From the NCBI RefSeq assembly GCF_988242995.1, contig NZ_OZ547043.1: a stretch of DNA of 64,000 bases. One strand, 5' to 3'. How positions within the stretch are numbered: the stretch's first letter is position 1; the number at the start of each line of letters is the position of its first letter. Position numbers and translations under genes: made by a program. Below are positions 3,580-56,111 of this stretch, in pieces. The notes beneath the pieces are model-generated. The model was not told the origin of the DNA, did not search any database, and saw only the letters and a program-made list of their open reading frames with translations.

Positions 3580-4068
3580 ATGAGTGAGATAGTGATACGC
3601 CATGCTGAAACGCGCGATTACGAGGCCATCAGGCAGATTCACGCCCAGCCGGAGGTGTATTGCAACACGCTACAGGTGCCTCATCCTTCCGATCATATGT
3701 GGCAGGAGCGACTCGCCGATCGTCCCGGCATCAAGCAACTCGTCGCCTGTATTGATGGAGACGTCGTGGGCCATCTCACCATTGACGTGCAACAGCGCCC
3801 ACGCCGCAGTCATGTTGCAGATTTTGGTATTTGTGTCGACTCCCGTTGGAAGAATCGCGGCGTCGCCAGCGCCCTGATGCGAGAGATGATTGAAATGTGC
3901 GACAACTGGTTGCGGGTAGATCGTATTGAGCTAACGGTGTTCATCGATAACGCGCCAGCAATTAAGGTCTATAAAAAATTTGGATTTGAGATTGAAGGGA
4001 CTGGCAAGAAGTACGCATTACGTAATGGTGAATATGTCGATGCGTATTATATGGCGCGGGTGAAGTAA
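3580..4068 (+). CDS. yhhY: GNAT-family N-acetyltransferase
   Basis: Internal ATG of ORF 3487-4068 gives 162 aa starting MSEIVIRHAETRDY; GNAT motifs (RWKNRGVASALM); matches remembered YhhY. Confidence 0.88.
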   Translation: MSEIVIRHAETRDYEAIRQIHAQPEVYCNTLQVPHPSDHMWQERLADRPGIKQLVACIDGDVVGHLTIDVQQRPRRSHVADFGICVDSRWKNRGVASALMREMIEMCDNWLRVDRIELTVFIDNAPAIKVYKKFGFEIEGTGKKYALRNGEYVDAYYMARVK

Positions 4069-4303
4069 GATAGTGCCCTTTTTCTGAGATGGAAAAAGGG
4101 TGTCATTCAAAATCGGCATACCTTCCTTTAATGTATTTATTTTCCCAATAAATATATAAGATTTACCTCATAATTACGTCCTAAAGTGTAATATTTTATT
4201 TTTTAATATATACGCCTACAATTTCCTGGAGTAAATAAATAACAATTAACAAGCATAATAGTGCCATTGATAAAATAGCATGCCATAAAAGGACTTTTCA
4301 TGG

Positions 4304-5482
4304 ATGAGTAATATTGTTTACCTGACAGTAACGGGAGAACAACAAGGAAGCATCTCCGCAGGTTGTGGGACTTCTGAGTCTACAGGTAATCGCTGGCAGA
4401 GCGGGCATGAGGATGAAATATTTACATTCTCATTCTTAAATAGTATTACTAATACGGGGCTTGGTTCACAGTTCCATGGTATAACATTTTGTAAATTAAT
4501 TGATAAAAGCACTCCATTATTTATTAATTCCATTAACAATAATGAACAATTATTTATGGAATTTGACTTCTATCGAATAAATAGATTTGGTAGATGGGAA
4601 AAGTATTATTATATACAACTAAGAGGCGCTTTTTTATCGGCTATTCATCATCAGATCATTGAAAATCAACTGGATACAGAAACATTAACTGTTAGTTATG
4701 AATTTATCCTCTGTCAACATCTTATCGCAAATACCGAGTTCAGCTATTTGGCACTCCCTGAAAATTATAACTGTTTGTTTTTACCAAATTCAAAAAACCA
4801 AACAAATAATCGTTTCAAAACGTTAAACAGCAAAGCTATTGGCAGGCTACTTGCTGCTGGTGGCGTATACAATGGGAACATTGAAGGATTCAGAGATACT
4901 GCGGAAAAACTGGGTGGAGATGCAATAAAAGGCTATGATCAAATACTAAATGAAAAAACAGCGGGCATAGCGATAGCAACAGCATCTATTCTTTTAACAA
5001 AGCGTTCTAATGTTGATACATATACAGAAATAAATAGTTACTTAGGCAAACTTAGAGGTCAACAAAAACTTCTTGATGGTATAGACATAATAGAAACAAT
5101 ATACATTAAGAGACCTTCAAAAGACTTAGCTAACTTACGAAAGGAGTTTAATAAAACTGTAAGAAAAAATTTTCTTATCAAACTTGCAAAAACCTCCGAA
5201 GCATCTGAAAGATTCAACGCCGAAGACCTTTTAAGAATGAGAAAGGGCAATGTTCCTCTAAATTATAATGTTCACCATAAACTATCTCTAGATGATGGTG
5301 GTACTAATGATTTCGAAAATTTAGTATTAATCGAAAACGAACCATATCATAAAGTTTTTACTAACATGCAATCACGAATAGCTAAGGGAGTATTAGTAGG
5401 TGAAAGCAAAATCACTCCCTGGGCCATTCCATCTGGCTCAATTTATCCTCCCATGAAAAATATTATGGAACCCACAAAATGA
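4304..5482 (+). CDS. yhhZ: Hcp-like protein fused to a C-terminal HNH/colicin-DNase-type nuclease domain (polymorphic toxin)
   Basis: 392 aa; N-terminal Hcp-like segments (FTF, IDKSTP, FYR); C-terminal HNH motif VHHKLSLDDGGTNDFENLVLIENEPYHKVF resembling colicin E9 DNase; AT-rich. Confidence 0.85.
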   Translation: MSNIVYLTVTGEQQGSISAGCGTSESTGNRWQSGHEDEIFTFSFLNSITNTGLGSQFHGITFCKLIDKSTPLFINSINNNEQLFMEFDFYRINRFGRWEKYYYIQLRGAFLSAIHHQIIENQLDTETLTVSYEFILCQHLIANTEFSYLALPENYNCLFLPNSKNQTNNRFKTLNSKAIGRLLAAGGVYNGNIEGFRDTAEKLGGDAIKGYDQILNEKTAGIAIATASILLTKRSNVDTYTEINSYLGKLRGQQKLLDGIDIIETIYIKRPSKDLANLRKEFNKTVRKNFLIKLAKTSEASERFNAEDLLRMRKGNVPLNYNVHHKLSLDDGGTNDFENLVLIENEPYHKVFTNMQSRIAKGVLVGESKITPWAIPSGSIYPPMKNIMEPTK

Positions 5483-5973
5483 TGACTAAAACCCAAATAA
5501 ATAAATTAAAAAAAATGATGAATGATTTAGACTATCCATTTGAAGCACCGCTCAAGGAATCATTTATTGAAAGTATAATCCAAATAGAATTTAATTCTAA
5601 TTCAACTAATTGCCTGGAGAAATTATGTAATGAAGTTAGTATTCTTTTTAATAATCAACCTGATTATCTTAATTTTTTAAGAGCAATGGATGGATTCGAA
5701 GTTAATGGATTACGATTATTTAGCCTCTCGATTCCAGAACCTTCAGTTAAAAACCTTTTTACCGTAAATGAATTTTATAGAAATAATGATGATTTCATAA
5801 ACCCTGATCTACAAGAACGGTTAGTGATCGGGGATGATAGCATTTCAATATTTACTTATGACATTAAAAGTAACTTTTTTGAAATTAGAGATAATATTGG
5901 CACCGAAAATATATTCAGTTCGTTTAGTGATTTCTCTTCATTCTTAAACGAAATCATGGACAGTTGTTCATAA
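5479..5973 (+). CDS. yrhA: putative cognate immunity protein of the YhhZ nuclease toxin
   Basis: 164 aa ORF whose ATG overlaps the yhhZ stop (ATGA); AT-rich; position matches K-12 yrhA, but here uninterrupted. Confidence 0.7.
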   Translation: MMTKTQINKLKKMMNDLDYPFEAPLKESFIESIIQIEFNSNSTNCLEKLCNEVSILFNNQPDYLNFLRAMDGFEVNGLRLFSLSIPEPSVKNLFTVNEFYRNNDDFINPDLQERLVIGDDSISIFTYDIKSNFFEIRDNIGTENIFSSFSDFSSFLNEIMDSCS

Positions 5974-6422
5974 TAATCAAAAGGTAACAAAAATCATTGT
6001 AAACCATGCCATCTTTTTAGAGATTACCAGCAGAAAATTCCTTGTTCGAAACTTAGCAATGCAAGCTATGGAAAAACTTACAACGGAACTACACTCCTTA
6101 AGTGAGATGGACCGAAGACATGTAATCTCTATTTTAGCCGAAATAGCTAATGGCTATGATGATTTTAGTGACATGTTGATTTAGTTAGAATTTCACCCGA
6201 ATCATAAGATTCTGATATCTTAAATAAGAAAATCCCGTTCGACGTTCTGAAAAAGAAATCACAAAATATTAGCAGATACTTATTTCGTGACTGTATATTA
6301 TCCGATGAACTTTTTTCAAAACCAGCATTTAATAATATCTTTGACGAAGATGAACGCGTCTTTTCTCAAAGTATAACGCAAGAATAATAATATAACGATC
6401 AACAATAATATTTATTATAATT

Positions 6423-37945: not shown

Positions 37946-40749
<2,804 letters not shown>

Positions 40750-40947
40750 CACCTACCAACGCGCCGTTATTTCCTGACGGCGCAGTAAATTCCTGCCAAA
40801 TATCGACTCACGTCACATTTTTTTGATCACGATTTGGTCCCTCAAAATGTGAGACGCTTCGATCCTCTTTTTCTCCCGTTCACCTACTATACGCTTGAAG
40901 TTGTCCATGATTGTCCATAGACAACTGTAAATGTTCAGGTGCGCGCC

Positions 40948-41694
40948 ATGAAATCATTAAGTAAGTCGTCACAAATACCGCTCTATCAACAAGTGGTGGA
41001 GTGGATAAGAGAAAGTATTTATACCGGGGATTTGGTGGAAGACGATCGCATTCCTTCGGAATACCAGATTATGGATATGCTGGAAGTGAGTCGGGGAACC
41101 GTTAAAAAAGCAGTCGCCCAACTGGTAAAAGAAGGCGTGTTGATTCAGGTCCAGGGGAAGGGAACATTTGTCAAAAAAGAGAACGTGGCATATCCGTTAG
41201 GTGAAGGATTATTGTCATTCGCGGAATCGCTGGAAAGCCAGAAAATACACTTTACCACTGAAGTTATTACGTCACGGATTGAACCGGCTAATCGTTATGT
41301 GGCAGAGAAATTAAGAATAACGCCCGGTCAGGATATTCTTTACCTTGAGCGTTTACGTTCAATTGGTGATGAAAAAGCGATGCTGATAGAGAACCGTATC
41401 AATATTGAGCTATGCCCCGGCATCGTGGAAATCGATTTTAATCAACACAATTTATTTCCAACAATAGAAAGTTTGTCGCAAAGAAAAATTCGTTACTCGG
41501 AAAGTCGCTATGCCGCGCGATTAATTGGTAATGAACGCGGTCATTTTTTAGATATCAGTGAAGATGCACCCGTTTTGCATCTGGAGCAGTTAGTCTTTTT
41601 CTCCCGAGAGTTACCCGTTGAGTTTGGCAACGTCTGGTTAAAAGGAAATAAATATTATCTGGGTACCGTGCTGCAACGGCGGGAATTGAGTTAA
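40948..41694 (+). CDS. GntR/HutC-family transcriptional regulator (HTH + UTRA effector domain)
   Basis: ATG at 40948 with upstream AGGTG (track start 40939 is GTG); N-terminal GntR HTH (IPSEYQIMDMLEVSRGTVKKAVAQLVKEGVL...GKGTFV); not part of K-12 at this position. Confidence 0.8.
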   Translation: MKSLSKSSQIPLYQQVVEWIRESIYTGDLVEDDRIPSEYQIMDMLEVSRGTVKKAVAQLVKEGVLIQVQGKGTFVKKENVAYPLGEGLLSFAESLESQKIHFTTEVITSRIEPANRYVAEKLRITPGQDILYLERLRSIGDEKAMLIENRINIELCPGIVEIDFNQHNLFPTIESLSQRKIRYSESRYAARLIGNERGHFLDISEDAPVLHLEQLVFFSRELPVEFGNVWLKGNKYYLGTVLQRRELS

Positions 41695-41718
41695 ATACAC
41701 TTTTTTATGAGGAATAAA

Positions 41719-42192
41719 ATGCAAGGCATACAGTTTCAGGAAAATTATATTCAACGACTTCCGGCAGGGTTAAGCGTTGAACAGATCATCCGTCAGTTAG
41801 CGCAACCGTTGGTTGCTGCTGAGCTGGTGGTCCCTGATTTTGCCGATCACGTACTGAAACGTGAGGCGACGTACCCAACAGGGCTGCCTACCGAACCGCC
41901 GTGCGTCGCTATTCCGCACACGGACCATAAACATGTCAGGCACAATGCAATTGCCGTCGGCATCCTGCCGGAACCGGTAGAGTTTGCCGATATGGGCGGC
42001 GATCCTGACCCCGTACCTGTCAGGGTGATTTTTTTGCTCGCCTTAAGCGAAAGTAATAAACAATTAAATGCCCTGGGCTGGATTATGGAGATGATTCAGG
42101 ATACGCCCTTTATGCGCGCCCTGCTTACGATGGAAACAACAGAAATACACACAGTAATCTTAAACAAAATGAAAGAACGAGGTGAAATATGA
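41719..42192 (+). CDS. PTS EIIA component, galactitol (GAT) family
   Basis: GatA-like motifs (YPTGLPTEP ... VAIPHTDH); start taken at ATG after GAGGA (track start 41707). Confidence 0.75.
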   Translation: MQGIQFQENYIQRLPAGLSVEQIIRQLAQPLVAAELVVPDFADHVLKREATYPTGLPTEPPCVAIPHTDHKHVRHNAIAVGILPEPVEFADMGGDPDPVPVRVIFLLALSESNKQLNALGWIMEMIQDTPFMRALLTMETTEIHTVILNKMKERGEI

Positions 42193-42470
42193 GTCAAACC
42201 ATTTTATTTGTCTGCGCCACGGGTATTGCCACATCCACGGCGGTAACAGAAAAAGTCATGGAATATTGTAAAGAGCACGGTCTTAACGTCAATTATTCCC
42301 AAACCAACGTTGCCTCTTTACCTGGAAATACTGACGGCGTAGCACTGGTAGTCTCAACGACTAAAGTGCCTTATGAACTCGACGTCCCGGTGGTTAACGG
42401 CTTGCCGATTATTACCGGTATTGGCGAAGAGAAAGTACTGGCGCAAATTGTTTCGATCCTTAAAAAGTAA
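42189..42470 (+). CDS. PTS EIIB component, galactitol (GAT) family
   Basis: 93 aa; phosphocysteine motif near the N-terminus (ILFVCATGIATST) like GatB; 4-bp overlap with EIIA. Confidence 0.78.
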   Translation: MSQTILFVCATGIATSTAVTEKVMEYCKEHGLNVNYSQTNVASLPGNTDGVALVVSTTKVPYELDVPVVNGLPIITGIGEEKVLAQIVSILKK

Positions 42471-42546
42471 TTAATAATAATTAATTTCAACCCACTCCAT
42501 CAGGCGCTAACGCGAGGTGCGCTCTCGCCTGAAAAAGAGGTTTATT

Positions 42547-43905
42547 ATGAACGATATCGCGCATACCCTCTATAATATTGTGCAATATATATTGGGATTT
42601 GGTCCCACGGTAATGTTGCCGTTGGTGTTATTTATTCTTGCTCTCTTTTTTAAAGTAAAACCCGCTAAAGCCTTACGTTCGTCATTAACGGTCGGTATTG
42701 GTTTTGTCGGTATTTATGCCATTTTCGATATTCTTACCAGCAATGTCGGGCCAGCGGCCCAGGCGATGGTTGAACGCACCGGAATTAATTTACCGGTGGT
42801 GGATTTAGGCTGGCCGCCGCTTTCCGCTATTACATGGGGTTCGCCAATTGCCCCGTTTGTTATTCCCCTGACTATTCTGATTAACGTGGCGATGCTGGCG
42901 TTAAATAAAACCCGCACCGTTGACGTAGATATGTGGAACTACTGGCATTTTGCCCTTGCCGGTACGCTGGTTTATTACAGCACCGGCAGCCTGTTCTTTG
43001 GTTTGCTGGCAGCGGCGATTGCTGCGGTGGTAGTACTTAAACTCGCCGACTGGTCTGCGCCACTGGTACAAAAATACTTTGGCCTGGAAGGGATCTCTTT
43101 GCCGACGCTCTCTTCGGTGGTGTTCTTTCCGGTCGGTCTGTTGGTCGACAAAATCATCGACCATATCCCCGGCCTCAATCGTATTCATATCGATCCGGAA
43201 ACCGTACAGAAAAAGTTTGGCATATTCGGCGAACCGATGATGGTTGGTACTATTCTGGGCATTCTGCTCGGCGTAATTGCCGGATACGATTTCAAAAAAG
43301 TCTTGCTGCTTGGCATCAGCATTGGCGGTGTGATGTTCATCCTGCCACGCATGGTTCGCATTCTGATGGAAGGTTTATTACCGCTGTCTGAAGCCATTAA
43401 AAAGTATCTCAATGCCAAATACCCTGACCGTGACGATCTCTATATCGGCCTGGATATCGCCGTTGCCGTAGGTAACCCAGCGATTATCTCCACCGCCCTG
43501 CTGCTGACGCCAATCTCGGTCTTTATCGCGTTTGTCCTTCCGGGTAATGAAGTCCTGCCGCTTGGCGACCTTGCCAACCTGGCGGTAATGGCGTCGATGA
43601 TTGCTTTAGCCAGCCGTGGCAACATTTTCCGCACCGTTCTGGCGGCGATTCCGGTGATTATTGCCGATCTGTGGATTGCGACTAAAATCGCGCCGTTTAT
43701 TACCGGAATGGCGAAAGACGTTAATTTCAAATTTGCCGAAGGCTCCAGCGGCCAGGTCTCCAGTTTCCTTGATGGCGGTAACCCGTTCCGCTTCTGGCTG
43801 CTGGAAATCTTCAACGGCAATCTCATCGCCATTGGTCTGGTGCCGGTTATTGCCCTGGTACTGTATGGTATTTTCCGAATGACGCGGAGCACGGTTTATG
43901 CCTGA
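42547..43905 (+). CDS. PTS EIIC permease, galactitol (GAT) family
   Basis: About 452 aa polytopic membrane protein; ATG at 42547 preceded by AAGAGG (track start 42517 is GTG). Confidence 0.75.
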   Translation: MNDIAHTLYNIVQYILGFGPTVMLPLVLFILALFFKVKPAKALRSSLTVGIGFVGIYAIFDILTSNVGPAAQAMVERTGINLPVVDLGWPPLSAITWGSPIAPFVIPLTILINVAMLALNKTRTVDVDMWNYWHFALAGTLVYYSTGSLFFGLLAAAIAAVVVLKLADWSAPLVQKYFGLEGISLPTLSSVVFFPVGLLVDKIIDHIPGLNRIHIDPETVQKKFGIFGEPMMVGTILGILLGVIAGYDFKKVLLLGISIGGVMFILPRMVRILMEGLLPLSEAIKKYLNAKYPDRDDLYIGLDIAVAVGNPAIISTALLLTPISVFIAFVLPGNEVLPLGDLANLAVMASMIALASRGNIFRTVLAAIPVIIADLWIATKIAPFITGMAKDVNFKFAEGSSGQVSSFLDGGNPFRFWLLEIFNGNLIAIGLVPVIALVLYGIFRMTRSTVYA

Positions 43906-45406
43906 TAACAGCGCAGCTATCGTTATCGATATTGGCACCACCAATTGCAAAGTCACCTGCTTTTCCTGCCTGGACGCAACGACGTTGGGCGCGCATAAAT
44001 TCGTGACGGCAAAACAGATCTCCCCACAGGGCAATGTCGATTTCGATATCGACGCCCTCTGGCAGGAGGTCCGCCAGGCGATAGCGCAACTGAACGCCGC
44101 TTCGCCGCTGCCAGTCAGGCGGATAAGCATTGCCAGTTTTGGCGAGTCAGGCGTGTTCCTTGACGAGCATGGCGAGATCCTGACGCCAATGCTGGCATGG
44201 TATGACCGTCGCGGTGAAGAGTATCTGGCTACACTTAGCGAGGCAGACAGTGCGGCACTTTATGACATTTGCGGGTTACCGCTGCACAGCAATTACTCTG
44301 CCTTCAAAATGCGTTGGTTGCTGGAACATTACCCACTGCGTAATCGCCGCGGCCTGCGTTGGCTACATGCGCCGGAAGTACTGCTCTGGCGGCTGACCGG
44401 CGAACAGCGCACGGATATCACCTTAGCCAGCCGCACGCTGTGTCTGGACGTGCGCAAAGGCGCATGGTCAGTGAAAGCGGCGGCGTTGTTACACGTTCCC
44501 TGTTCAGCATTTGCGCCATTGGTGCAGCCAGGCGAACACGCCGGATGGGTCAGCGAGTCGCTCTGCAAAACGCTTGGGTTCTCGCAACCGGTCAGCGTGA
44601 CGCTGGCCGGACATGACCATATGGTGGGTGCGCGAGCGTTGCAGATGATGCCGGGCGATATCCTTAACTCGACGGGGACCACAGAAGGTATTCTGCAACT
44701 GGATACACAACCGACGCTGGATGAACAGGCCAAACGTGACAAGCTGGCAAACGGCTGTTATTCGCTTGCAAACCAGTTCACCCTGTTTGCGTCGCTGCCC
44801 GTGGGCGGTTTCGCTCTGGAGTGGCTGCGTAACACGTTCCGGCTAACCGATGAGGAGATCGCCGCATCACTTACTCGCGGACATGCGGATTACCTGGCGG
44901 GGAACTGGTCGCTCGATGACATTCCCCTCTTTATTCCACATCTTCGCGGTTCGGGTTCGCCCTATAAAAATCGCCATACTCGTGGATTATTTTATGGGCT
45001 TGGCGATACGTTAAATATCGACATGTTAATTGCCAGCGTCTCACTGGGATTAACCATGGAATTTGCCAACTGCTTCGCCTGTTTTAATGTGCCTGGCACC
45101 AGCGCGTTAAAAGTGATAGGTCCGGCAACCCAAAATCCCCTTTGGCTGCAATTAAAAGCGGATATTTTACAGCGTCCGGTTGAAGCAATTGCATTTAACG
45201 AGGCGGTTTCTGTCGGAGCATTATTAACTGCCGCACCGGATATTCCACCGCCGCAAGTTACCATAGCCCAACGTTTGTTACCGAATCGGGCGAGATACCA
45301 TCAATTACAGCGTTATCAGCACAAATGGAAAAGCTGGTATCAGTTGAAATTACAGCAAGAAGGCGTGATGCCATTACACCATCGGGAGGAGCACTATGTT
45401 GAGTAA
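43898..45406 (+). CDS. FGGY-family carbohydrate kinase
   Basis: 502 aa; N-terminal actin-fold phosphate-1 motif (AIVIDIGTTNCKV) and FGGY-type glycine-rich segments; 8-bp overlap with EIIC gene. Confidence 0.7.
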   Translation: MPDNSAAIVIDIGTTNCKVTCFSCLDATTLGAHKFVTAKQISPQGNVDFDIDALWQEVRQAIAQLNAASPLPVRRISIASFGESGVFLDEHGEILTPMLAWYDRRGEEYLATLSEADSAALYDICGLPLHSNYSAFKMRWLLEHYPLRNRRGLRWLHAPEVLLWRLTGEQRTDITLASRTLCLDVRKGAWSVKAAALLHVPCSAFAPLVQPGEHAGWVSESLCKTLGFSQPVSVTLAGHDHMVGARALQMMPGDILNSTGTTEGILQLDTQPTLDEQAKRDKLANGCYSLANQFTLFASLPVGGFALEWLRNTFRLTDEEIAASLTRGHADYLAGNWSLDDIPLFIPHLRGSGSPYKNRHTRGLFYGLGDTLNIDMLIASVSLGLTMEFANCFACFNVPGTSALKVIGPATQNPLWLQLKADILQRPVEAIAFNEAVSVGALLTAAPDIPPPQVTIAQRLLPNRARYHQLQRYQHKWKSWYQLKLQQEGVMPLHHREEHYVE

Positions 45407-45665
45407 AACCGTGGAGGTCAGAAACAGTACTGGCCTGCATGCACGTCCGGCGGCGTGTCTGGTGAAAGCCGCCAAAAAGTTTAGCTGTAAAGTGACGCTG
45501 CATTATGAGGGTAATGATATTAATGCCACCAGCATGATGAATATTATGCGCGCCGGAATAAAAGGCGGCAAAACGGTGGAAATACGCTGCGAAGGCGATG
45601 ATGAAAATGAGGCAATACAAACTCTCACTGCCTTATTTCGTGACCGCTTCGGTGAAGCTGAATAA
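45396..45665 (+). CDS. HPr-family phosphocarrier protein (operon-specific paralog)
   Basis: 89 aa; active-site His context GLHARPAA identical in pattern to HPr His15; strong SD GGGAGGAG. Confidence 0.8.
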   Translation: MLSKTVEVRNSTGLHARPAACLVKAAKKFSCKVTLHYEGNDINATSMMNIMRAGIKGGKTVEIRCEGDDENEAIQTLTALFRDRFGEAE

Positions 45666-45695
45666 TTAACTGATATTAAAAGATGAGGTTTTCAA

Positions 45696-46547
45696 ATGCC
45701 ATTAGTTAATGGACGGATACTGCTCGACCGCATTCAGGAAAAACGGGTATTAGCGGGCGCGTTTAATACCACCAATCTGGAGACGACGATTTCAATTTTA
45801 AACGCCATTGAGCGTTCAGGATTACCCAACTTCATTCAGATTGCGCCCACCAATGCACAACTCTCGGGATACGATTACATTTATGAAATCGTGAAACGTC
45901 ACGCCGATAAAATGGATGTTCCGGTCAGTCTTCATCTGGATCACGGGAAAACTCAGGAGGATGTTAAACAGGCGGTGCGCGCGGGCTTTACCTCGGTCAT
46001 GATTGACGGTGCCGCATTATCTTTTGAAGAGAATATCGCTTTCACCCAGGAAGCTGTCGATTTCTGTAAATCCTATGGCGTACCGGTTGAAGCGGAGCTG
46101 GGGGCGATTCTCGGCAAAGAAGATGATCACGTCAGCGAAGCCGATTGCAAAACGGAACCGGAAAAGGTGAAGACCTTTGTCGAGCGCACCGGTTGCGACA
46201 TGCTGGCAGTTTCTATTGGCAACGTTCATGGCCTGGACGATATACCGCGTATCGATATCCCCCTGCTGAAGCGCATTGCCGAAGTCTGCCCGGTGCCGCT
46301 GGTTATTCACGGCGGCTCCGGTATCGCCCCGGAAATATTACGCAGCTTTGTTAATTATCGCGTCGCTAAAGTAAATATCGCCAGCGATCTGCGCAAAGCG
46401 TTTATCACCGCCGTCGGCAAAGCGTATGTGAATAATCACAACGAGGCGAATCTGGCACGAGTGATGGCATCAGCAAAAAACGCCGTCGAGGAAGATGTGT
46501 ATAGCAAAATCCTGATGATGAATGAGGGGCATCGGTTGGTTAAGTAA
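45696..46547 (+). CDS. class II ketose-bisphosphate aldolase (GatY/KbaY/FbaA family)
   Basis: 283 aa; metal-binding His motifs (HLDHG, VIHGGSG) typical of class II tagatose/fructose-bisphosphate aldolases. Confidence 0.8.
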   Translation: MPLVNGRILLDRIQEKRVLAGAFNTTNLETTISILNAIERSGLPNFIQIAPTNAQLSGYDYIYEIVKRHADKMDVPVSLHLDHGKTQEDVKQAVRAGFTSVMIDGAALSFEENIAFTQEAVDFCKSYGVPVEAELGAILGKEDDHVSEADCKTEPEKVKTFVERTGCDMLAVSIGNVHGLDDIPRIDIPLLKRIAEVCPVPLVIHGGSGIAPEILRSFVNYRVAKVNIASDLRKAFITAVGKAYVNNHNEANLARVMASAKNAVEEDVYSKILMMNEGHRLVK

Positions 46548-46640
46548 ATCTTCGCCGGATGCGGCGTAAAACAACTACAATTCAATAAATTGTACCGATG
46601 CGTAGACCCTATAAGCTTACGCATCGGGCAACTGTATTTA
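46548..46640. repeat. REP-like palindromic elements at island/core junction
   Basis: gccggatgcggcgtaaa and cgatgcgtagaccctataagcttacgcatcgg palindromes between the aldolase gene and yhhJ. Confidence 0.7.
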
Positions 46641-47765
46641 CGCCATTGTCCCAATCGTCTTCCTGAATCGCAGCAGTGCGATGGTGAAAAACGCGCCGCC
46701 AATTGCCATCAGCGTCAGGAACTGCGGCCAGACGATTTCGAATCCGGCACCACGGTAGAGAATGGCTTGCGCGAGGCTGACAAAGTGTGTCGTCGGCATG
46801 GTCAGCATAATGTCCTGCACCGTCTGCGGCATACTTTCGCGCGGCGTGGATCCACCGGAAAGCATTTGCAGCGGCAGCAGCACCAGAATCACCAGCAGCC
46901 CCAGTTGCGGCATTGAACGCGCTATCGTCCCCATAAAAATGCCAATTGACGTGGTGGCAAACAGACTGAGCGCCACGCCCAGCATAAATAGCGGGATCGA
47001 GCCTTCAATCGGTACGCCCAGCACGCCTTTCACCATCAGTACCAGCGATAATCCCGACACCACCAGCACCACCAACCCCATCGACCAGACCTTCGCCATC
47101 ATGATCTCAAACGGCGTTATCGGCATCACCAGTAAGTGTTCCACCGTGCCGTGTTCGCGCTCGCGGATCAGCGCCGATCCGGTCAGCACAATCGCCAGCA
47201 TGGTAATGTTGTTGATGATCGCCATCACCCCGCCAAACCACGCGGGATCGAGGTTCGGGTTAAAGCGCATCCGGGTTTCCAGCGATACCAACGGTTCGCT
47301 ATTATCACGGTAGCGCGCGACAAAGCTGTTCACTTCACCGTTGATAATATTCTGGATATAACCGTTGCCAGTGAATGCCTGGCTCATGCGCGTGGCATCG
47401 ACGTTCACCTGAATATCCGGCTGGCGTCCGGCGAGGACATCACGCTGAAAATTAGGCGGAATATTTATCGCGAAGGTATAGCGTCCGGCGTCCAGTCCGG
47501 CATCCATCTCATCGGCGGTGATCATCTCCGGTGGCAAAAACCACGGGCGATAGAAGCTGTTAACGATCCGGTTCGACAACTGCGATTGATCCATATCGGC
47601 TATGGCGATCGGCGCGAGGTTCAACGATCCTGGCGTGACGGTCGCTGACGAATACACCGATACCGTAAACGAGAAAACAATCAACGTCAGCATCGCTTTA
47701 TCACCGAGCAGACTGCGCAACTCTTTGATACCCAGATTAAAAATATTGCGTAAATGGCGCATCAT
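46638..47765 (-). CDS. yhhJ: ABC-2 type transporter permease
   Basis: Start refined to [12 protein letters not shown] (4-bp overlap with rbbA); about 375 aa membrane protein. Confidence 0.9.
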
Positions 47766-51561: not shown

Positions 51562-52029
51562 AATCGACCCGCCATAATCCCTGTAAGCAAACGACGCGTG
51601 TTACAACTGCCGCCGAACGACGTTCAGCGGATTCTTCCATCCGGGATAAGAAGGAAACGGCAAATACGACCAGCGCGCAGAGCATTGAGCGCCAACGTGG
51701 AAGGCTTAGTGAAAACGGGTAGTAATGTTGTCATCATCAGCATTCCTGGCCGTAAATGAAACACGCATACTCATAAGTGTGATCTATAAAACTGGCTGAC
51801 AAAACGGTATCCATCCTGTTGGATAGCGTTTCACGCCTGTTCAGTTGCAGGAACAGAGCATTCCTTATTACGTTTTATCAACAGTCTCAACCAGATAGTA
51901 ACATTAATATTCATGTTGTCTATGGTTCAGAGCTGTAACATTGTGCGCCTTCTAATCAAAGGCATAAGTCCATTTTTGTTTTTTTCATGCTGGTAAGACT
52001 TCCAGGGAGTGGTTATCTCAGGCCCTGCA

Positions 52030-52745
52030 CCAGGGTTAATTTGGCAATAAATATCCTCCGGCATAGCCGGAGGTTTTTCAAATGCGCCTATAAGGCTCTC
52101 TTACCAGCCGCGCCCTAACAGGCGCACACGATCTGACATTTGCATCCAACTTCGTTACTTACGGCCCGTAAACGGGCTGCCCGGATAGGGAATCGATAAC
52201 TGCTCTCCCATTTTATCCTCTTCAAGCTGGTGCTTTATGTAATCCTGTATCTTCGCCGTGTTCTTACCCACTGTATCGACGTAGTACCCTCTGCACCAGA
52301 ACTCCCTGTTCCTGTATTTGAATTTCAAATCACCAAACTGCTCGTAAAGCATCAGACTGCTTTTCCCTTTCAGATATCCCATAAAGCCGGATACGCTCAT
52401 TTTGGGCGGGATCTCCACAAGCATATGGATATAATCTGCACAGCATTCAGCTTCCAGAATCCGTACGCTTTTCCACTCACACAGCTTTCTCAAAATACTG
52501 CCTATTGCTCTACGCTTCTCTCTGTAGAACACCTGTCTTCGGTATTTTGGCGCAAAAACTATGTGATATTTACAGTTCCATCGGGTGTGCGCTAAGCTCT
52601 TTTCGTTCCCCATTGGGACCCCCTTTTGATTTCTTGTTTGACACTTGCAGTTGCCAGACCGCAAAGTGTTTTAACAAATCAAAAGGGGTTTTAATAACTG
52701 GCTCAAAGCTGAAAGCTTTCCGGAACCCCCAGCCTAGCTGGGGGT
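52030..52745 (-). mobile_element. IS200-like insertion sequence (IS200/IS605 family, tnpA only); boundaries approximate
   Basis: About 0.7 kb element containing a Y1/HUH transposase gene, with a perfect GC-rich hairpin (aacccccagc cta gctgggggtt) at the tnpA-upstream end as in IS200 left ends; absent from the K-12 arrangement. Confidence 0.7.
52155..52613 (-). CDS. tnpA: IS200/IS605-family Y1 (HUH) transposase TnpA
   Basis: 152 aa from MGNEKSLAHTRWNCKYHIVFAPKYRR; HUH-type motif (YIHMLV) and catalytic Tyr region; start refined from ORF 52155-52664. Confidence 0.85.
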   Translation of the reverse strand: MGNEKSLAHTRWNCKYHIVFAPKYRRQVFYREKRRAIGSILRKLCEWKSVRILEAECCADYIHMLVEIPPKMSVSGFMGYLKGKSSLMLYEQFGDLKFKYRNREFWCRGYYVDTVGKNTAKIQDYIKHQLEEDKMGEQLSIPYPGSPFTGRK

Positions 52746-54260
52746 TTTCTGTGCACAATTATGCATGCTGAACATTCTTCCAGCATGTTTACTGTCACGG
52801 GCGTTAAGACCTAAAACTGTCCCCGTTTCACCTATGCGTTCTCTTCCACCATTACCGTTATGTGCAACAACTTGATTTATACCTAACATTTGTGAGCATG
52901 CTAATAGTTCTTCAAGTTTCGGTCTGTAATCTGTCGAAACAGAAAAATAACGATTAAAGGATCGACAAGAGATAGCCCGGCTAGTTTTAAACTTTTTACC
53001 ATTAATGATGGCATGATGCTTCTTATTAATAATTGCCGCTAATTCGACCGGATCGAGAGCATTGGTCATTTCATCAATAGAGACTGTTATCGGTCCTATA
53101 ATGTAACGTTTTCGCTGATCATCAAAAGTTATCCCATGATGATTTGCCATTATTTTGTATTTGGGGTCATAGAAACATACAGGATAATCTTTTATCCCAG
53201 CGTAGGTATCCTCATCAAGTGGTTTCATACGCGTGAAGTTCTGCATATAGTTACCATTGCAATTCGTTTCATGATTACCAGCTAATACATGAACATTTTT
53301 ATTAATACTCATTATGCGTTTTAACAAATCGATGATAAATTGATCGCCACAGATATTACTAAATCGATCGCCGGTTTGGTCACCCAGAAACGTACATGGC
53401 GTCACTGCGCCCTGATTAATAACTAAATATGGCTGAAGACTTTCTAAAACCACATCTCTTCTGTTCAGAATACTGATTATTGTATTAACATTAATGTCTA
53501 GTTCCTCATTAATTTTTTCCCTTAATAAAACGTTGAGAACTTCATCTTCTATATTAAGCAACTGGCTAAGAAAATTTACTTCTTCAGCCATAATTCCCAA
53601 ATGTCCCGTTGCGAAAAGCGCGTACAAAACTGCACCGACTGAGCCATCGGTATCACCAAAATAGGTTGGTCTGGTACTTGTGGGATCAACGGGTGAACAA
53701 TTGGAGAAATAGATTCTGTCAGCGAACTGGGGTTTTATAATTGTTTCGAATTTAATATCAGATACATTGTATTGCGATATTTTCCAGTTCCAGATGGGTT
53801 TGTACGACTCAGTAACTGCAACATCATTAGCATTATCATTTACTGTCATATTATTAAGTAAATAAACAATGCTGCACCAATTAATATCGGTATCATCAAG
53901 AGGGCAACCGTAATTTTTACTATTAATTGTCACAATAAACTGATAACTATTATTCCTACGTAGAATATGGGCACGCATGCCCGATAGCATACTATATTTT
54001 TCTGAATGATTCGTTTCTATGGTAAATGAAATTTTGTCATCTTGAAAAGATTGTTGGAAACGTTCTATTTGCCAATCATCAATTTTTTCCACAACTTCAC
54101 CGAGCATTGTCCTGGCAATACTTGATATATCATCACCTATACCATTTGCAATATACCCAAACAGTTCTTTAGTGAAGTTAGTAACATGCTCTTGCACCAT
54201 ATCATTTGTTGCGATAGTCGTTATACTGTCGTTAGTACCTGCCACAGTTCCAATTTTCAT
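52734..54260 (-). CDS. yhiJ: DUF4049-type protein with C-terminal PPP-like metallophosphoesterase motifs; 3' end abuts or is altered by the IS200 end
   Basis: 508 aa; motifs GDTDG, GDQTGDRF, LAGNHE in PPP order; SD GAGGT upstream; paralog of the next gene; AT-rich. Confidence 0.8.
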   Translation of the reverse strand: MKIGTVAGTNDSITTIATNDMVQEHVTNFTKELFGYIANGIGDDISSIARTMLGEVVEKIDDWQIERFQQSFQDDKISFTIETNHSEKYSMLSGMRAHILRRNNSYQFIVTINSKNYGCPLDDTDINWCSIVYLLNNMTVNDNANDVAVTESYKPIWNWKISQYNVSDIKFETIIKPQFADRIYFSNCSPVDPTSTRPTYFGDTDGSVGAVLYALFATGHLGIMAEEVNFLSQLLNIEDEVLNVLLREKINEELDINVNTIISILNRRDVVLESLQPYLVINQGAVTPCTFLGDQTGDRFSNICGDQFIIDLLKRIMSINKNVHVLAGNHETNCNGNYMQNFTRMKPLDEDTYAGIKDYPVCFYDPKYKIMANHHGITFDDQRKRYIIGPITVSIDEMTNALDPVELAAIINKKHHAIINGKKFKTSRAISCRSFNRYFSVSTDYRPKLEELLACSQMLGINQVVAHNGNGGRERIGETGTVLGLNARDSKHAGRMFSMHNCAQKTPS

Positions 54261-54521
54261 CTTTTACCTCATATAATTCACCGCGAGGAATACATAGTTA
54301 TCATTTAATCTTATGACAAACACCTCATGTTCGATGGAAAAATAATTATATTTTGCACAAATCATTCAGCCTTAAAGCATAATATGAAATTTCTTATCTC
54401 ATAGTAGAGAAAGTCCCTAAAGATTGTAGAGGCGTCATCAGAACATGCCTCTACAATCGATTAAGAAAAACTATGAAATACTGGCAGGATTAAAAAGATA
54501 TACCACCGTATTCATGGAGTT

Positions 54522-56111
54522 TTAATGAGATTGAAAACAACTAAGCCCTGGGACACCTTTTTTATCACCACGTTCGTTAGGTGCTATCTTCCAGGAATTT
54601 AGCCCCATGGTATAATTATCAATTTCTTGATGCTGATCTACCCCTAATCCATAATGGCCATATTTCTGTTTACTTTTTTTGAGCGCCTGTCCACATTTGA
54701 AGATATCTTCAGGTTTTGGTCTGAAAGCAGTAGTGTTATTAAAATAATTGTCATATACAGGTGTGGATGCTATAGCATTGCTTCTAATTAGATGGATAAG
54801 ACGATCATCCATGTGTTGCTTATGTTTTTTATTAAATATATTTGCTAATTCCTCAGGATCAATTGGGTCTTTCATCTGATTAAATGGAACCTGCAAAGCA
54901 CCTAGACAATAACATTCATTTTCTTCATTTCTTATTATTCCGTGATGACTGGTTAAAACTTTCGTTTCTGAGTCATAATTACAAACATCGAGCGTTTTAA
55001 TTAAGTTATATCTATCACCGGAAGAGAGTTTATGATTTGCTAGTCGTGCACTATAGTTACCATTAAAATTGATTTCATGATTTCCAGCCAGAACGACGAC
55101 ATTTTTATTTATACGACTATCTTTATTACCCTCCATATTTCGCATAGAATTTAGCAAAGTAAGGATATATTTATCACCAAAAATAGTACTAAATCTATCG
55201 CCTGTATGATCCCCAAGGAAGATACAAGGGGTAATCGCATCGCCTTTTAAAAAAACATGTTGATGCAACTCATTCAAGATCATGTCTCTCGTATCTAATA
55301 AAGTGAAAAGTTTTTTCAATTTTTTATTTTCATATGCGAATGAAGCCATGTCTTCGTGTTTTAATAATTGACATAATAAACTCCACCCCTCTCCCCTGAT
55401 GCCTATATGCCCTGAAACGAGCAATGCATAAAGTACAGCGCCCACTCTTCCATCTGTATCGCCAAAATAAGCCGTGTTGGGATTTTTTGGGTTAATCACA
55501 CCACACTGTTTATAAAAGTCTATTTTTGAAAAAACAGATTCAACATAGCTATCAAACTTTTCCTTAGTAAACGTCTCTTTAGAGACAGCCCAACGCCAGT
55601 CAGCTTTAAAATTACCGCTAAGAAGAGTAAAAAAATTTTCAGGTATGATAGAAAACCCATCAACTTTATAAATTATGTCTGATTTATCCCCGGAGAAATT
55701 AATAAAATAATAACCGTCCTTACGCTCAATCGTAACGGTAATGGGAGACGATAATTTTATCACATGGTTATTGTCTGGTATAATTGTAAAGATAAACGTG
55801 TCAGTAGTATTATCGGCGAAACTATTATATTCTTTAATATCTATAGATGGCTCACTATTGTAAAACCACAGTTTTTCTATCTGAGGACTATGTTCAGTTA
55901 CGTTCCAGCAGCCATGTTGCAGGAAATAGATGATATGCAGGCCAAAATCGTTATCTATTTGCGAATGTTTATCCAGCTTATCAATTTCAACTATCTTTGA
56001 ACGATGTTTTTTATCAACATTGCCATGGTGTTGATGACTGTTAACTTTATCTGAATGCTTATCTTGATGGTTTGAAGAGAAGTGCTTAAATATATTGTGA
56101 AATACTTTCAT
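54522..56111 (-). CDS. yhiL: DUF4049-type paralog with PPP-like metallophosphoesterase motifs (intact here)
   Basis: Motifs GDTDG, GDHTGDRF, LAGNHE; His-rich N-terminal segment; start uncertain (56111 chosen, longest ORF reaches 56195). Confidence 0.7.
   Translation of the reverse strand: MKVFHNIFKHFSSNHQDKHSDKVNSHQHHGNVDKKHRSKIVEIDKLDKHSQIDNDFGLHIIYFLQHGCWNVTEHSPQIEKLWFYNSEPSIDIKEYNSFADNTTDTFIFTIIPDNNHVIKLSSPITVTIERKDGYYFINFSGDKSDIIYKVDGFSIIPENFFTLLSGNFKADWRWAVSKETFTKEKFDSYVESVFSKIDFYKQCGVINPKNPNTAYFGDTDGRVGAVLYALLVSGHIGIRGEGWSLLCQLLKHEDMASFAYENKKLKKLFTLLDTRDMILNELHQHVFLKGDAITPCIFLGDHTGDRFSTIFGDKYILTLLNSMRNMEGNKDSRINKNVVVLAGNHEINFNGNYSARLANHKLSSGDRYNLIKTLDVCNYDSETKVLTSHHGIIRNEENECYCLGALQVPFNQMKDPIDPEELANIFNKKHKQHMDDRLIHLIRSNAIASTPVYDNYFNNTTAFRPKPEDIFKCGQALKKSKQKYGHYGLGVDQHQEIDNYTMGLNSWKIAPNERGDKKGVPGLSCFQSH

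Follow-up and report, generated by a model that had tools for sequence, protein, structure and literature searches.

An FGGY-family kinase in a phosphotransferase-system operon of Escherichia coli is a candidate ketose-phosphate kinase

The characterised ketohexose routes linked to the phosphotransferase system (PTS), namely fru, tag, gat, lac and aga, all pass through a bisphosphate (PMC9720028). In the D-tagatose pathway of Klebsiella oxytoca, Salmonella and Bacillus licheniformis, the TagTH PTS delivers tagatose-1-phosphate, TagK converts it to tagatose-1,6-bisphosphate and GatYZ acts on the product (PMC9720028). Here, an operon whose proposed logic is the same (a ketose imported by a PTS, phosphorylated again at the expense of ATP and passed to a class II aldolase) was analysed in a 64,000-nucleotide stretch of Escherichia coli chromosome (NCBI RefSeq assembly GCF_988242995.1, contig NZ_OZ547043.1; hereafter the window), in which the kinase gene, at positions 43898–45406 of the plus strand, encodes a member of the FGGY family. 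The operon comprises seven genes, all on the plus strand, in the order GntR–EIIA–EIIB–EIIC–FGGY–HPr–class II aldolase, the kinase gene being the fifth. A sequence-only reading of the window had placed an FGGY kinase next to an aldolase inside a PTS operon, which was confirmed by the intact open reading frame and the profile matches (the operon ends in a class II, ketose-bisphosphate-type aldolase), and had taken it for the operon's only kinase, which was borne out, no PfkB-type kinase being present. TagK, by comparison, is a FruK-like member of the PfkB family. We propose, at roughly even odds (a probability of about 0.5), that the operon is a self-contained catabolic cassette for a ketose and that the kinase is a ketose-phosphate kinase making the bisphosphate for the aldolase. 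By analogy, such a cassette would mirror the PTS-linked ketohexose routes, with an FGGY enzyme replacing the PfkB/PfkA enzyme.

Comparison with described systems showed that the operon is distinct from tagKTH and from the galactitol operon gatYZABCD. The tagKTH genes lie between gatY and gatZ and combine a fructose-type IIBC and an IIA/HPr protein with TagK (PMC9720028; PMC10101011), whereas the window operon has a Gat-family EIIC, an FGGY kinase and a separate aldolase family without a GatZ partner, and occupies the nikR–yhhJ locus. The match to the Klebsiella tagatose-1-phosphate kinase arrangement, about which the sequence-only reading had been uncertain, was thus not found, and identity with tagKTH was rejected since EIIC family, kinase family and locus all differ. 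The mention of GatZ as a kinase in that reading was incorrect, GatZ being an aldolase chaperone or subunit (RefSeq product; PMC9720028). With gatYZABCD, the operon has in common Gat-family EIIA, EIIB and EIIC, a PF01116 class II aldolase and, as predicted here, a ketose ω-phosphate intermediate needing a C1 kinase. However, the gat operon encodes GatD and GatZ and obtains its second phosphorylation from the host PfkA (PMC9720028), whereas the window operon has neither a dehydrogenase nor GatZ and brings its own FGGY kinase and HPr. The window proteins also missed all the Gat equivalog cutoffs (EIIA, 57 bits, cutoff 139; EIIB, 60 bits on NF007643, cutoff 95; EIIC, 476 bits on TIGR00827 (EIIC-GAT), cutoff 542). 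Because GatD and GatZ are absent and every cutoff is missed, the operon is not a gat operon.

An orthologous cassette, STM3779–STM3785, is present in Salmonella enterica. It has the same seven genes, with STM3780 as the aldolase gene, a kinase (STM3781) 63% identical to that of the window and the same palindrome upstream of the regulator gene, but the order of the HPr and aldolase genes is swapped and the cassette lies at another chromosomal site, adjacent to uhpABCT. The island has been reported as gained by the ancestor of subspecies I and described as 'a complete PTS with unknown specificity' (PMC3604774); in 2024 it was listed under 'unknown sugars' and scored as expressed in permissive but not in control or exclusive chicken caecal-content conditions (PMC11000858). 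STM3784 is reported to be activated by ArcA (PMC3075218) and has been counted among the genes of Salmonella pathogenicity island 3. Searches of the full-text literature found no description of the cassette, queries combining FGGY with PTS, galactitol, tagatose or bisphosphate giving nothing relevant, and RefSeq and NCBIfam (June 2026 release) hold only generic names for the operon genes.

The kinase gene has an ATG start and an intact open reading frame of 502 amino acids, with a GGAG Shine–Dalgarno sequence 9 nt 5′ of the start. Its start overlaps the stop of the EIIC gene by 8 nt (ATGCCTGA), each overlapping start having its own Shine–Dalgarno sequence, and its stop overlaps the start of the HPr gene by 11 nt; the kinase is translationally coupled to the upstream EIIC gene and the downstream HPr gene. 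A Pfam search of the protein gave FGGY_N (PF00370) at 151.1 bits (cutoff 28.8) and FGGY_C (PF02782) at 87.4 bits (cutoff 27). An AlphaFold2 model was obtained with a mean predicted local distance difference test score of 91.6, and the top Foldseek matches to this model were all FGGY kinases, with template-modelling scores of 0.78–0.84. The model and the alignment showed the two-domain actin-like ATPase fold, the catalytic Asp and the nucleotide-binding glycine motifs, D240 aligning to D245 of GlpK. Among 18 diverse homologues, the catalytic Asp240 and the nucleotide-binding motifs (D11, G13, T15, G260, T261, G408 and N413) are invariant. A separate E. coli protein of 313 amino acids in the NCBI database carries Pfam EIIC-GAT and FGGY_C domains and matches the C-terminal third of the kinase at 97% identity; probably it represents an internal-deletion or fusion pseudogene of some strain.

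On profile, alignment, tree and structure-model evidence, the kinase was assigned to a distinct, uncharacterised subfamily of FGGY kinases. It reached no NCBIfam equivalog cutoff for the XylB, GlpK, FucK, RhaB, GntK, AraB and LsrK groups, the best score being that for XylB (145 bits, cutoff 380), followed by GlpK (127 bits, cutoff 590) and FucK (119 bits, cutoff 471), and its scores on TIGR02628 and TIGR02627 were far under cutoff. When the kinase and its homologues were aligned with eight E. coli K-12 FGGY proteins (GlpK, XylB, LyxK, FucK, RhaB, AraB, LsrK and YgcE), the neighbour-joining tree placed them in a separate clade, with 17–23% identity to the eight K-12 proteins. Phylogenetic placement, which the sequence-only reading had named as a check, therefore puts the kinase outside every characterised free-sugar group. 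A PDB sequence search and Foldseek returned, as the nearest solved structures, glycerol kinases and xylulokinases of no more than 22% identity; neither gave a close relative that would point to a substrate.

FucK and RhaB are FGGY kinases that phosphorylate ketoses at C1, right before aldol cleavage to dihydroxyacetone phosphate, and the window kinase resembles them in two motifs: G-H-D at the catalytic Asp240, which in XylB and GlpK reads G-G-D or A-G-D, and S-x-G-T-x-E. The resemblance has limits: FucK and RhaB are 17–22% identical to the window kinase, their Trp/Phe positions are occupied in it by Thr262, His130 and Asn132, their substrates are free 6-deoxy-ketoses taken up through symporters, and the aldolases of the fuc and rha pathways belong to PF00596. 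Of the residues that form the substrate signature of GlpK, as defined in PMC3245297, Arg83, Tyr135 and Phe270 are replaced in the window kinase and only the equivalents of Glu84 and Asp245 are kept. Arg179, within an ASRT motif, was considered as a phosphate ligand and dropped, since GlpK carries the same motif.

Salmonella, Enterococcus, Listeria and Pectinatus carry the same cassette, made up of genes for a regulator, an aldolase, EIIA, EIIB, EIIC-Gat and FGGY. Kinase orthologues in other Enterobacterales are 61–80% identical to that of the window, and homologues of 32–40% identity occur in Enterococcus, Listeria, Selenomonadales, Lactobacillales, Bacillales, Coriobacteriia and Actinobacteria. 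The overlap of kinase start and EIIC stop recurs in many lineages, whereas the Firmicute and actinobacterial cassettes have no dedicated HPr. The gene neighbourhoods of the cassettes in E. coli, Salmonella, Enterococcus, Listeria and Pectinatus were inspected and held no gene for an isomerase, a phosphatase or a dehydrogenase. Prior dephosphorylation or isomerisation of the substrate, one of the two routes offered by the sequence-only reading, is not supported, no phosphatase or isomerase being conserved in the cassette.

A scan of about 100,000 species genomes yielded 80 loci from three phyla, the genes of high-GC actinobacterial loci being placed by tblastn mapping. An aldolase of the same family lies within 6 kb of the kinase in 78 of the 80 loci, and the two exceptions are truncated contigs. 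A Gat-family PTS is present in 68 loci. Eleven others, all from Actinobacteria, have no PTS and carry a second, XylB-like FGGY kinase (FGGY2; 305 bits on TIGR01312 (XylB), cutoff 380), none of the 80 has both, and a single locus, on a 1.3-kb contig, has neither. The substitution of the second kinase for the PTS is thus exact. In these 11 loci and in one separately examined metagenomic locus, FGGY2 directly follows the window-type kinase (FGGY1) in the order aldolase–FGGY1–FGGY2 (for example, FGGY1 at L095:10001-11443 and FGGY2 at L095:11440-12864), and a major facilitator superfamily (MFS) transporter and/or a Zn-dehydrogenase lies near most of them. Because the PTS-less actinobacterial loci carry FGGY2 and no locus carries both, the PTS and 'MFS + FGGY2' appear to be interchangeable modules for the first phosphorylation, implying that two phosphorylations are needed and that the window kinase family supplies the one that the PTS does not. 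In five of the non-PTS actinobacterial loci (L055, L067, L071, L092 and L094), the aldolase–FGGY1–FGGY2 series is continued, some 3 kb downstream of the match to the kinase, by another FGGY gene, the third, whose product is about 27% identical to FGGY1.

A third architecture, in which one or two Zn-dehydrogenases are added, was found in Pantoea, Erwinia, Raoultella, Gilliamella, Bacillus and Staphylococcus. One of these dehydrogenases is GatD-like, its best NCBIfam match being galactitol-1-phosphate 5-dehydrogenase. From their sequences, the dehydrogenase-bearing variants look like a polyol version of the cassette, which would use the corresponding polyol and oxidise the polyol phosphate to a ketose ω-phosphate; such a product would still need a C1 kinase before the class II aldolase. 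The variant of Pantoea rwandensis (L007:11687-12475) also has a paralogue of SurE-type 5′/3′-nucleotidase/phosphatase (286 bits on NF001490).

The PTS genes of the operon encode an EIIA of the PTS_EIIA_2 type (mannitol/fructose/galactitol class; 41719–42192; PF00359, 116 bits), a GatB-like EIIB (42189–42470), an EIIC of the galactitol (Gat) family (42547–43905, as in the RefSeq model) and, downstream of the kinase gene, a dedicated HPr-family phosphocarrier, a paralogue of HPr (45396–45665; TIGR01003, 106 bits, cutoff 47.9). The phosphorylation sites are kept in HPr (His15, in a HARPA motif), in EIIA (the His of AIPH, which aligns with GatA) and in EIIB (Cys9, which aligns with GatB). The conservation of these residues suggests that the PTS is catalytically competent and that the imported sugar should arrive phosphorylated, in agreement with what the sequence-only reading had assumed of PTS uptake.

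The last gene (45696–46547) encodes a class II (zinc) aldolase of the PF01116 family and NCBIfam PRK07998 type (NF005943, 557 bits, cutoff 364), which also passes TIGR00167 (221 bits, cutoff 215.6) and falls below the equivalogs for fructose-bisphosphate (FBP) and tagatose-bisphosphate (TBP) aldolases (TIGR01859, 238 bits, cutoff 343; TIGR01858, 219 bits, cutoff 444). The three zinc-binding His residues, the catalytic Asp and the motifs of the P1 phosphate site are kept, and LHLDH, GNVHG and HGGSG are conserved in 77 family members.

Taken together, gene content and family precedent suggest the following working scheme. The dedicated HPr would hand phosphate to EIIA and then EIIB, and the Gat-family EIIC would import the sugar as a monophosphate carrying its phosphate on the terminal carbon distal to the keto group; in the PTS-less loci, the XylB-like FGGY2 would do this first phosphorylation, likewise distal to the keto group. 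The FGGY kinase, with ATP, would then phosphorylate the ketose phosphate at the other primary hydroxyl, most likely at C1, and the class II aldolase would split the resulting bisphosphate, yielding dihydroxyacetone phosphate together with another phosphorylated product, an aldehyde (for a hexulose, glyceraldehyde 3-phosphate). The GntR/UTRA regulator would act at the upstream palindrome to keep the operon repressed until an intermediate of the pathway builds up. The carbon on which the Gat PTS and XylB-type kinases place phosphate is the one distal to the (future) keto group, and PF01116 aldolases require a C1 phosphate. This regiochemical precedent, like the G-H-D and S-x-G-T-x-E motifs shared with FucK and RhaB, fits a C1 role for the kinase by analogy.

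The cassette ranges over about 30% of complete E. coli genomes, Salmonella, enterococci, oral and gut Firmicutes and Coriobacteriia, and soil Actinobacteria. With a confidence that falls a little short of even, the comparison of sequences suggests that the kinase founds a subfamily of FGGY with a sugar-phosphate substrate, the first in the family, and that, together with its dedicated aldolase, it defines a widespread, mobile and unnamed ketose/hexitol pathway whose first phosphorylation comes interchangeably from a Gat-type PTS or an XylB-like FGGY kinase. Action on a sugar monophosphate, the other route offered by the sequence-only reading, is the best supported of the possibilities considered: the kinase falls in no characterised free-sugar group, and across the 80 loci a second FGGY kinase takes the place of the PTS exactly where the latter is missing. 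It is from these observations that we infer the phosphorylated state of the substrate.

Several observations weigh against a bisphosphate pathway. The sequence-only reading had held that FGGY members normally act on free substrates, and this is so: nine functions have been listed for the family, all on unphosphorylated sugars or polyols (PMC3245297), and no member with a phosphorylated substrate is known. The complementarity of PTS and FGGY2 comes from a single actinobacterial lineage and not from many independent events; as all the non-PTS loci belong to one phylum, the replacement may be a single evolutionary event. The aldolase family also lacks the distal-phosphate Arg ('DPR' motif; R257 of AgaY) of FBP/TBP aldolases, reading E-[AY]-N-L-[AIV]-[RKSNA]-V at this site with a variable residue aligned to the Arg. 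In FBP/TBP aldolases this Arg, equivalent to R331 of FbaA, binds the distal (C6) phosphate. The PF01116 aldolase YdjI of E. coli, a distant homologue of the window aldolase (E = 4e-42) that cleaves a monophosphate (a ketose 1-phosphate), likewise lacks it; the YdjH/YdjI cluster differs in having no PTS, and YdjH, a PfkB-family enzyme, has been described as an octuluronate kinase. Speculatively, family-conserved lysines in 'DHGK' and 'GKEDD' of the window aldolase could stand in for the missing Arg.

The same features lend themselves to a triose-kinase route of the liver type, which is the main rival to the bisphosphate pathway and was not raised in the sequence-only reading. In this design, a ketose 1-phosphate delivered by the PTS would be cut directly by the aldolase to dihydroxyacetone phosphate and a free aldehyde such as glyceraldehyde, and the FGGY enzyme would phosphorylate the aldehyde or the reduced polyol, so that both halves enter glycolysis. 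An aldolase family without the distal-phosphate Arg, like the monophosphate-cleaving YdjI, fits such a route, and the complementarity of PTS and FGGY2 suits it equally well, because two phosphorylations in total would still be needed. FGGY glycerol kinases are also among the closest solved relatives of the kinase, and an Enterococcus variant has a triose-phosphate isomerase gene between an FGGY gene and a gene for the same aldolase family. However, the replacement of the GlpK signature residues Arg83, Tyr135 and Phe270 and the FucK/RhaB-like catalytic motif (G-H-D) speak against it; the route would need C1 phosphorylation by both Gat-type PTS and XylB-like kinases, contrary to family precedent; and the literature within reach yielded no PTS pathway of this kind from a prokaryote. 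We therefore consider this route unlikely, although it deserves to be kept in view beside the bisphosphate pathway.

The kinase could also be an ordinary free-sugar kinase acting on an unphosphorylated ketose or polyol, which might arise by unphosphorylated entry, by intracellular release or as a second related substrate, with host enzymes handling the PTS product. Such a role would agree with the free substrates of all characterised FGGY kinases (PMC3245297) and with the names 'L-fuculokinase' and 'sugar (pentulose or hexulose) kinase' that some databases give to the homologues. However, the kinase reaches no equivalog cutoff, the overlap of EIIC stop and kinase start recurs in many lineages, and the PTS-less loci add a different FGGY kinase of the free-sugar (XylB-like) type instead of leaving the window-type kinase to work alone. 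In addition, the mobility of the minimal cassette (PTS, FGGY and aldolase) and its conservation across phyla point to a linear pathway that is complete in itself. An ordinary free-sugar kinase is thus rather improbable, more so than the triose-kinase route. FGGY kinases are known regulatory targets of the PTS, and the window kinase could serve mainly in regulation, as a PTS-linked sensor akin to GlpK–EIIA/HPr or LsrK–HPr, and not in the pathway itself. In E. coli, the overlap of the HPr gene with the 3′ end of the kinase gene would suit such a role, but it is very improbable given the catalytic Asp240 and nucleotide-binding motifs invariant in the 18 homologues, the Firmicute and actinobacterial versions without a dedicated HPr and the obligate pairing with the aldolase. 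The free-sugar and the purely regulatory readings fit the conservation pattern poorly.

Two other arrangements of PTS and FGGY genes were seen in enterococci. In the Enterococcus avium group (L044:10826-19400; also L040 and L041), a second operon lies directly downstream of the cassette and encodes a PF01116 aldolase, a Mga/PRD/EIIA regulator, a mannose-family PTS (IIA, IIB, IIC and IID), a Zn-dehydrogenase and a distant FGGY; it is another 'PTS + FGGY + class II aldolase' design with a different PTS family. In Enterococcus sp. AZ163 (L101:2463-8834), the locus has genes for a GntR/UTRA regulator, a glucitol-family PTS (EIIA-gut, EII-GUT and EIIBC-GUT), GutM, an XylB-like FGGY kinase (348 bits on TIGR01312) that shares 22% identity with the window kinase, a paralogue of triose-phosphate isomerase of the archaeal type and an aldolase that shares 62% with that of the window. 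The XylB-like kinase of this glucitol-PTS variant was compared with actinobacterial FGGY2 for orthology; at 22% identity the two are too divergent to separate the bisphosphate pathway from the triose-kinase route.

The first gene of the operon (40948–41694, plus strand, as in the RefSeq model) encodes a GntR-family regulator with a UTRA effector domain (HutC subfamily); the LSA1692, PhnF and HutC models all scored below cutoff, and Pfam GntR and UTRA were matched on orthologues. An inverted repeat, AGTTGTCCATG-N6-CATAGACAACT, together with a direct repeat of TTGTCCAT, lies at 40899–40926, 22 nt upstream of the regulator's start codon. In 19 enterobacterial loci, that of Salmonella among them, the palindrome core TTGTCYATAGACAA recurs in the same place relative to the regulator gene, just 5′ of it, and the palindrome is probably the operator of this GntR/HutC-type regulator. 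Promoter and terminator scans of 40300–47000 gave a number of sites not above that in shuffled sequence. The interval between the stop of the aldolase gene and the convergent yhhJ stop (46548–46637) contains a sequence resembling repetitive extragenic palindromic elements (GCCGGATGCGGCGTAAA) and a hairpin (GATGCGTAGACCCTATAAGCTTACGCATC).

The window belongs to the E. coli chromosome, the 40800–46700 stretch being 99.8% identical to complete genomes, and RefSeq gives other E. coli genomes identical gene models for the operon, which is flanked by nikR and yhhJ/rbbA. In K-12 (L100, 3618989-3625679), the nikR–yhhJ interval that corresponds to 40750–46640 of the window holds rhsB-yhhH-yrhC-yhhI in place of the operon, and the site therefore has alternative accessory contents. 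With coverage of at least 80% of a 5.9-kb query (operon and short flanks) as the criterion of presence, the operon was found in 1635 of 5426 complete E. coli genomes (about 30%) and was always chromosomal; no plasmid carriage was seen among these genomes, two 'plasmid' matches being chromosome-sized records. Elsewhere in the window, AT-rich stretches occur at 4001–6000 (GC 0.32) and 52001–58000 (GC 0.34–0.42) against a background of about 0.52, the latter overlapping a yhiJ-like open reading frame of 508 amino acids at 52734–54260.

FBP/TBP-type (FBA/TBA) class II aldolases make 3S products, whereas psicose is 3R. Because of this clash, D-psicose, the one ketohexose with no locus assigned to it among the carbon sources that E. 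coli Nissle 1917 (EcN), but not K-12, can use (PMC7924626), is kept only as a weak lead to the substrate. EcN carries the intact operon (ECOLIN_RS19900-19930), in which ECOLIN_RS19920 is the kinase gene and ECOLIN_RS19930 the aldolase gene. An EcN strain that lacks the unrelated tag cluster of the ATP-binding cassette type at accC–yhdT (EcNΔ6) fails to grow on D-tagatose or to consume it (Ha et al. 2022, PMC9720028), which indirectly makes D-tagatose an unlikely substrate of the operon.

Judged by its gene content, the operon appears to encode a PTS–kinase–aldolase pathway in which the kinase is a non-orthologous FGGY enzyme and the aldolase comes from a distinct family. Action of the kinase on a ketose phosphate would widen the range of substrates known for FGGY enzymes, and the operon would then offer a clear case of non-orthologous displacement of the PfkB/PfkA-type sugar-phosphate kinases. 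The substrate of the Salmonella island has been recorded as unknown since at least 2013 (PMC3604774), and the question is of interest because the cassette is widespread in important gut bacteria and the answer lies within reach of simple biochemistry. The operon is an accessory island for nutrient acquisition, carried by a probiotic E. coli and by many other strains of the species; knowing its sugar would close a gap in metabolic models and may bring to light a determinant of niche in the gut.

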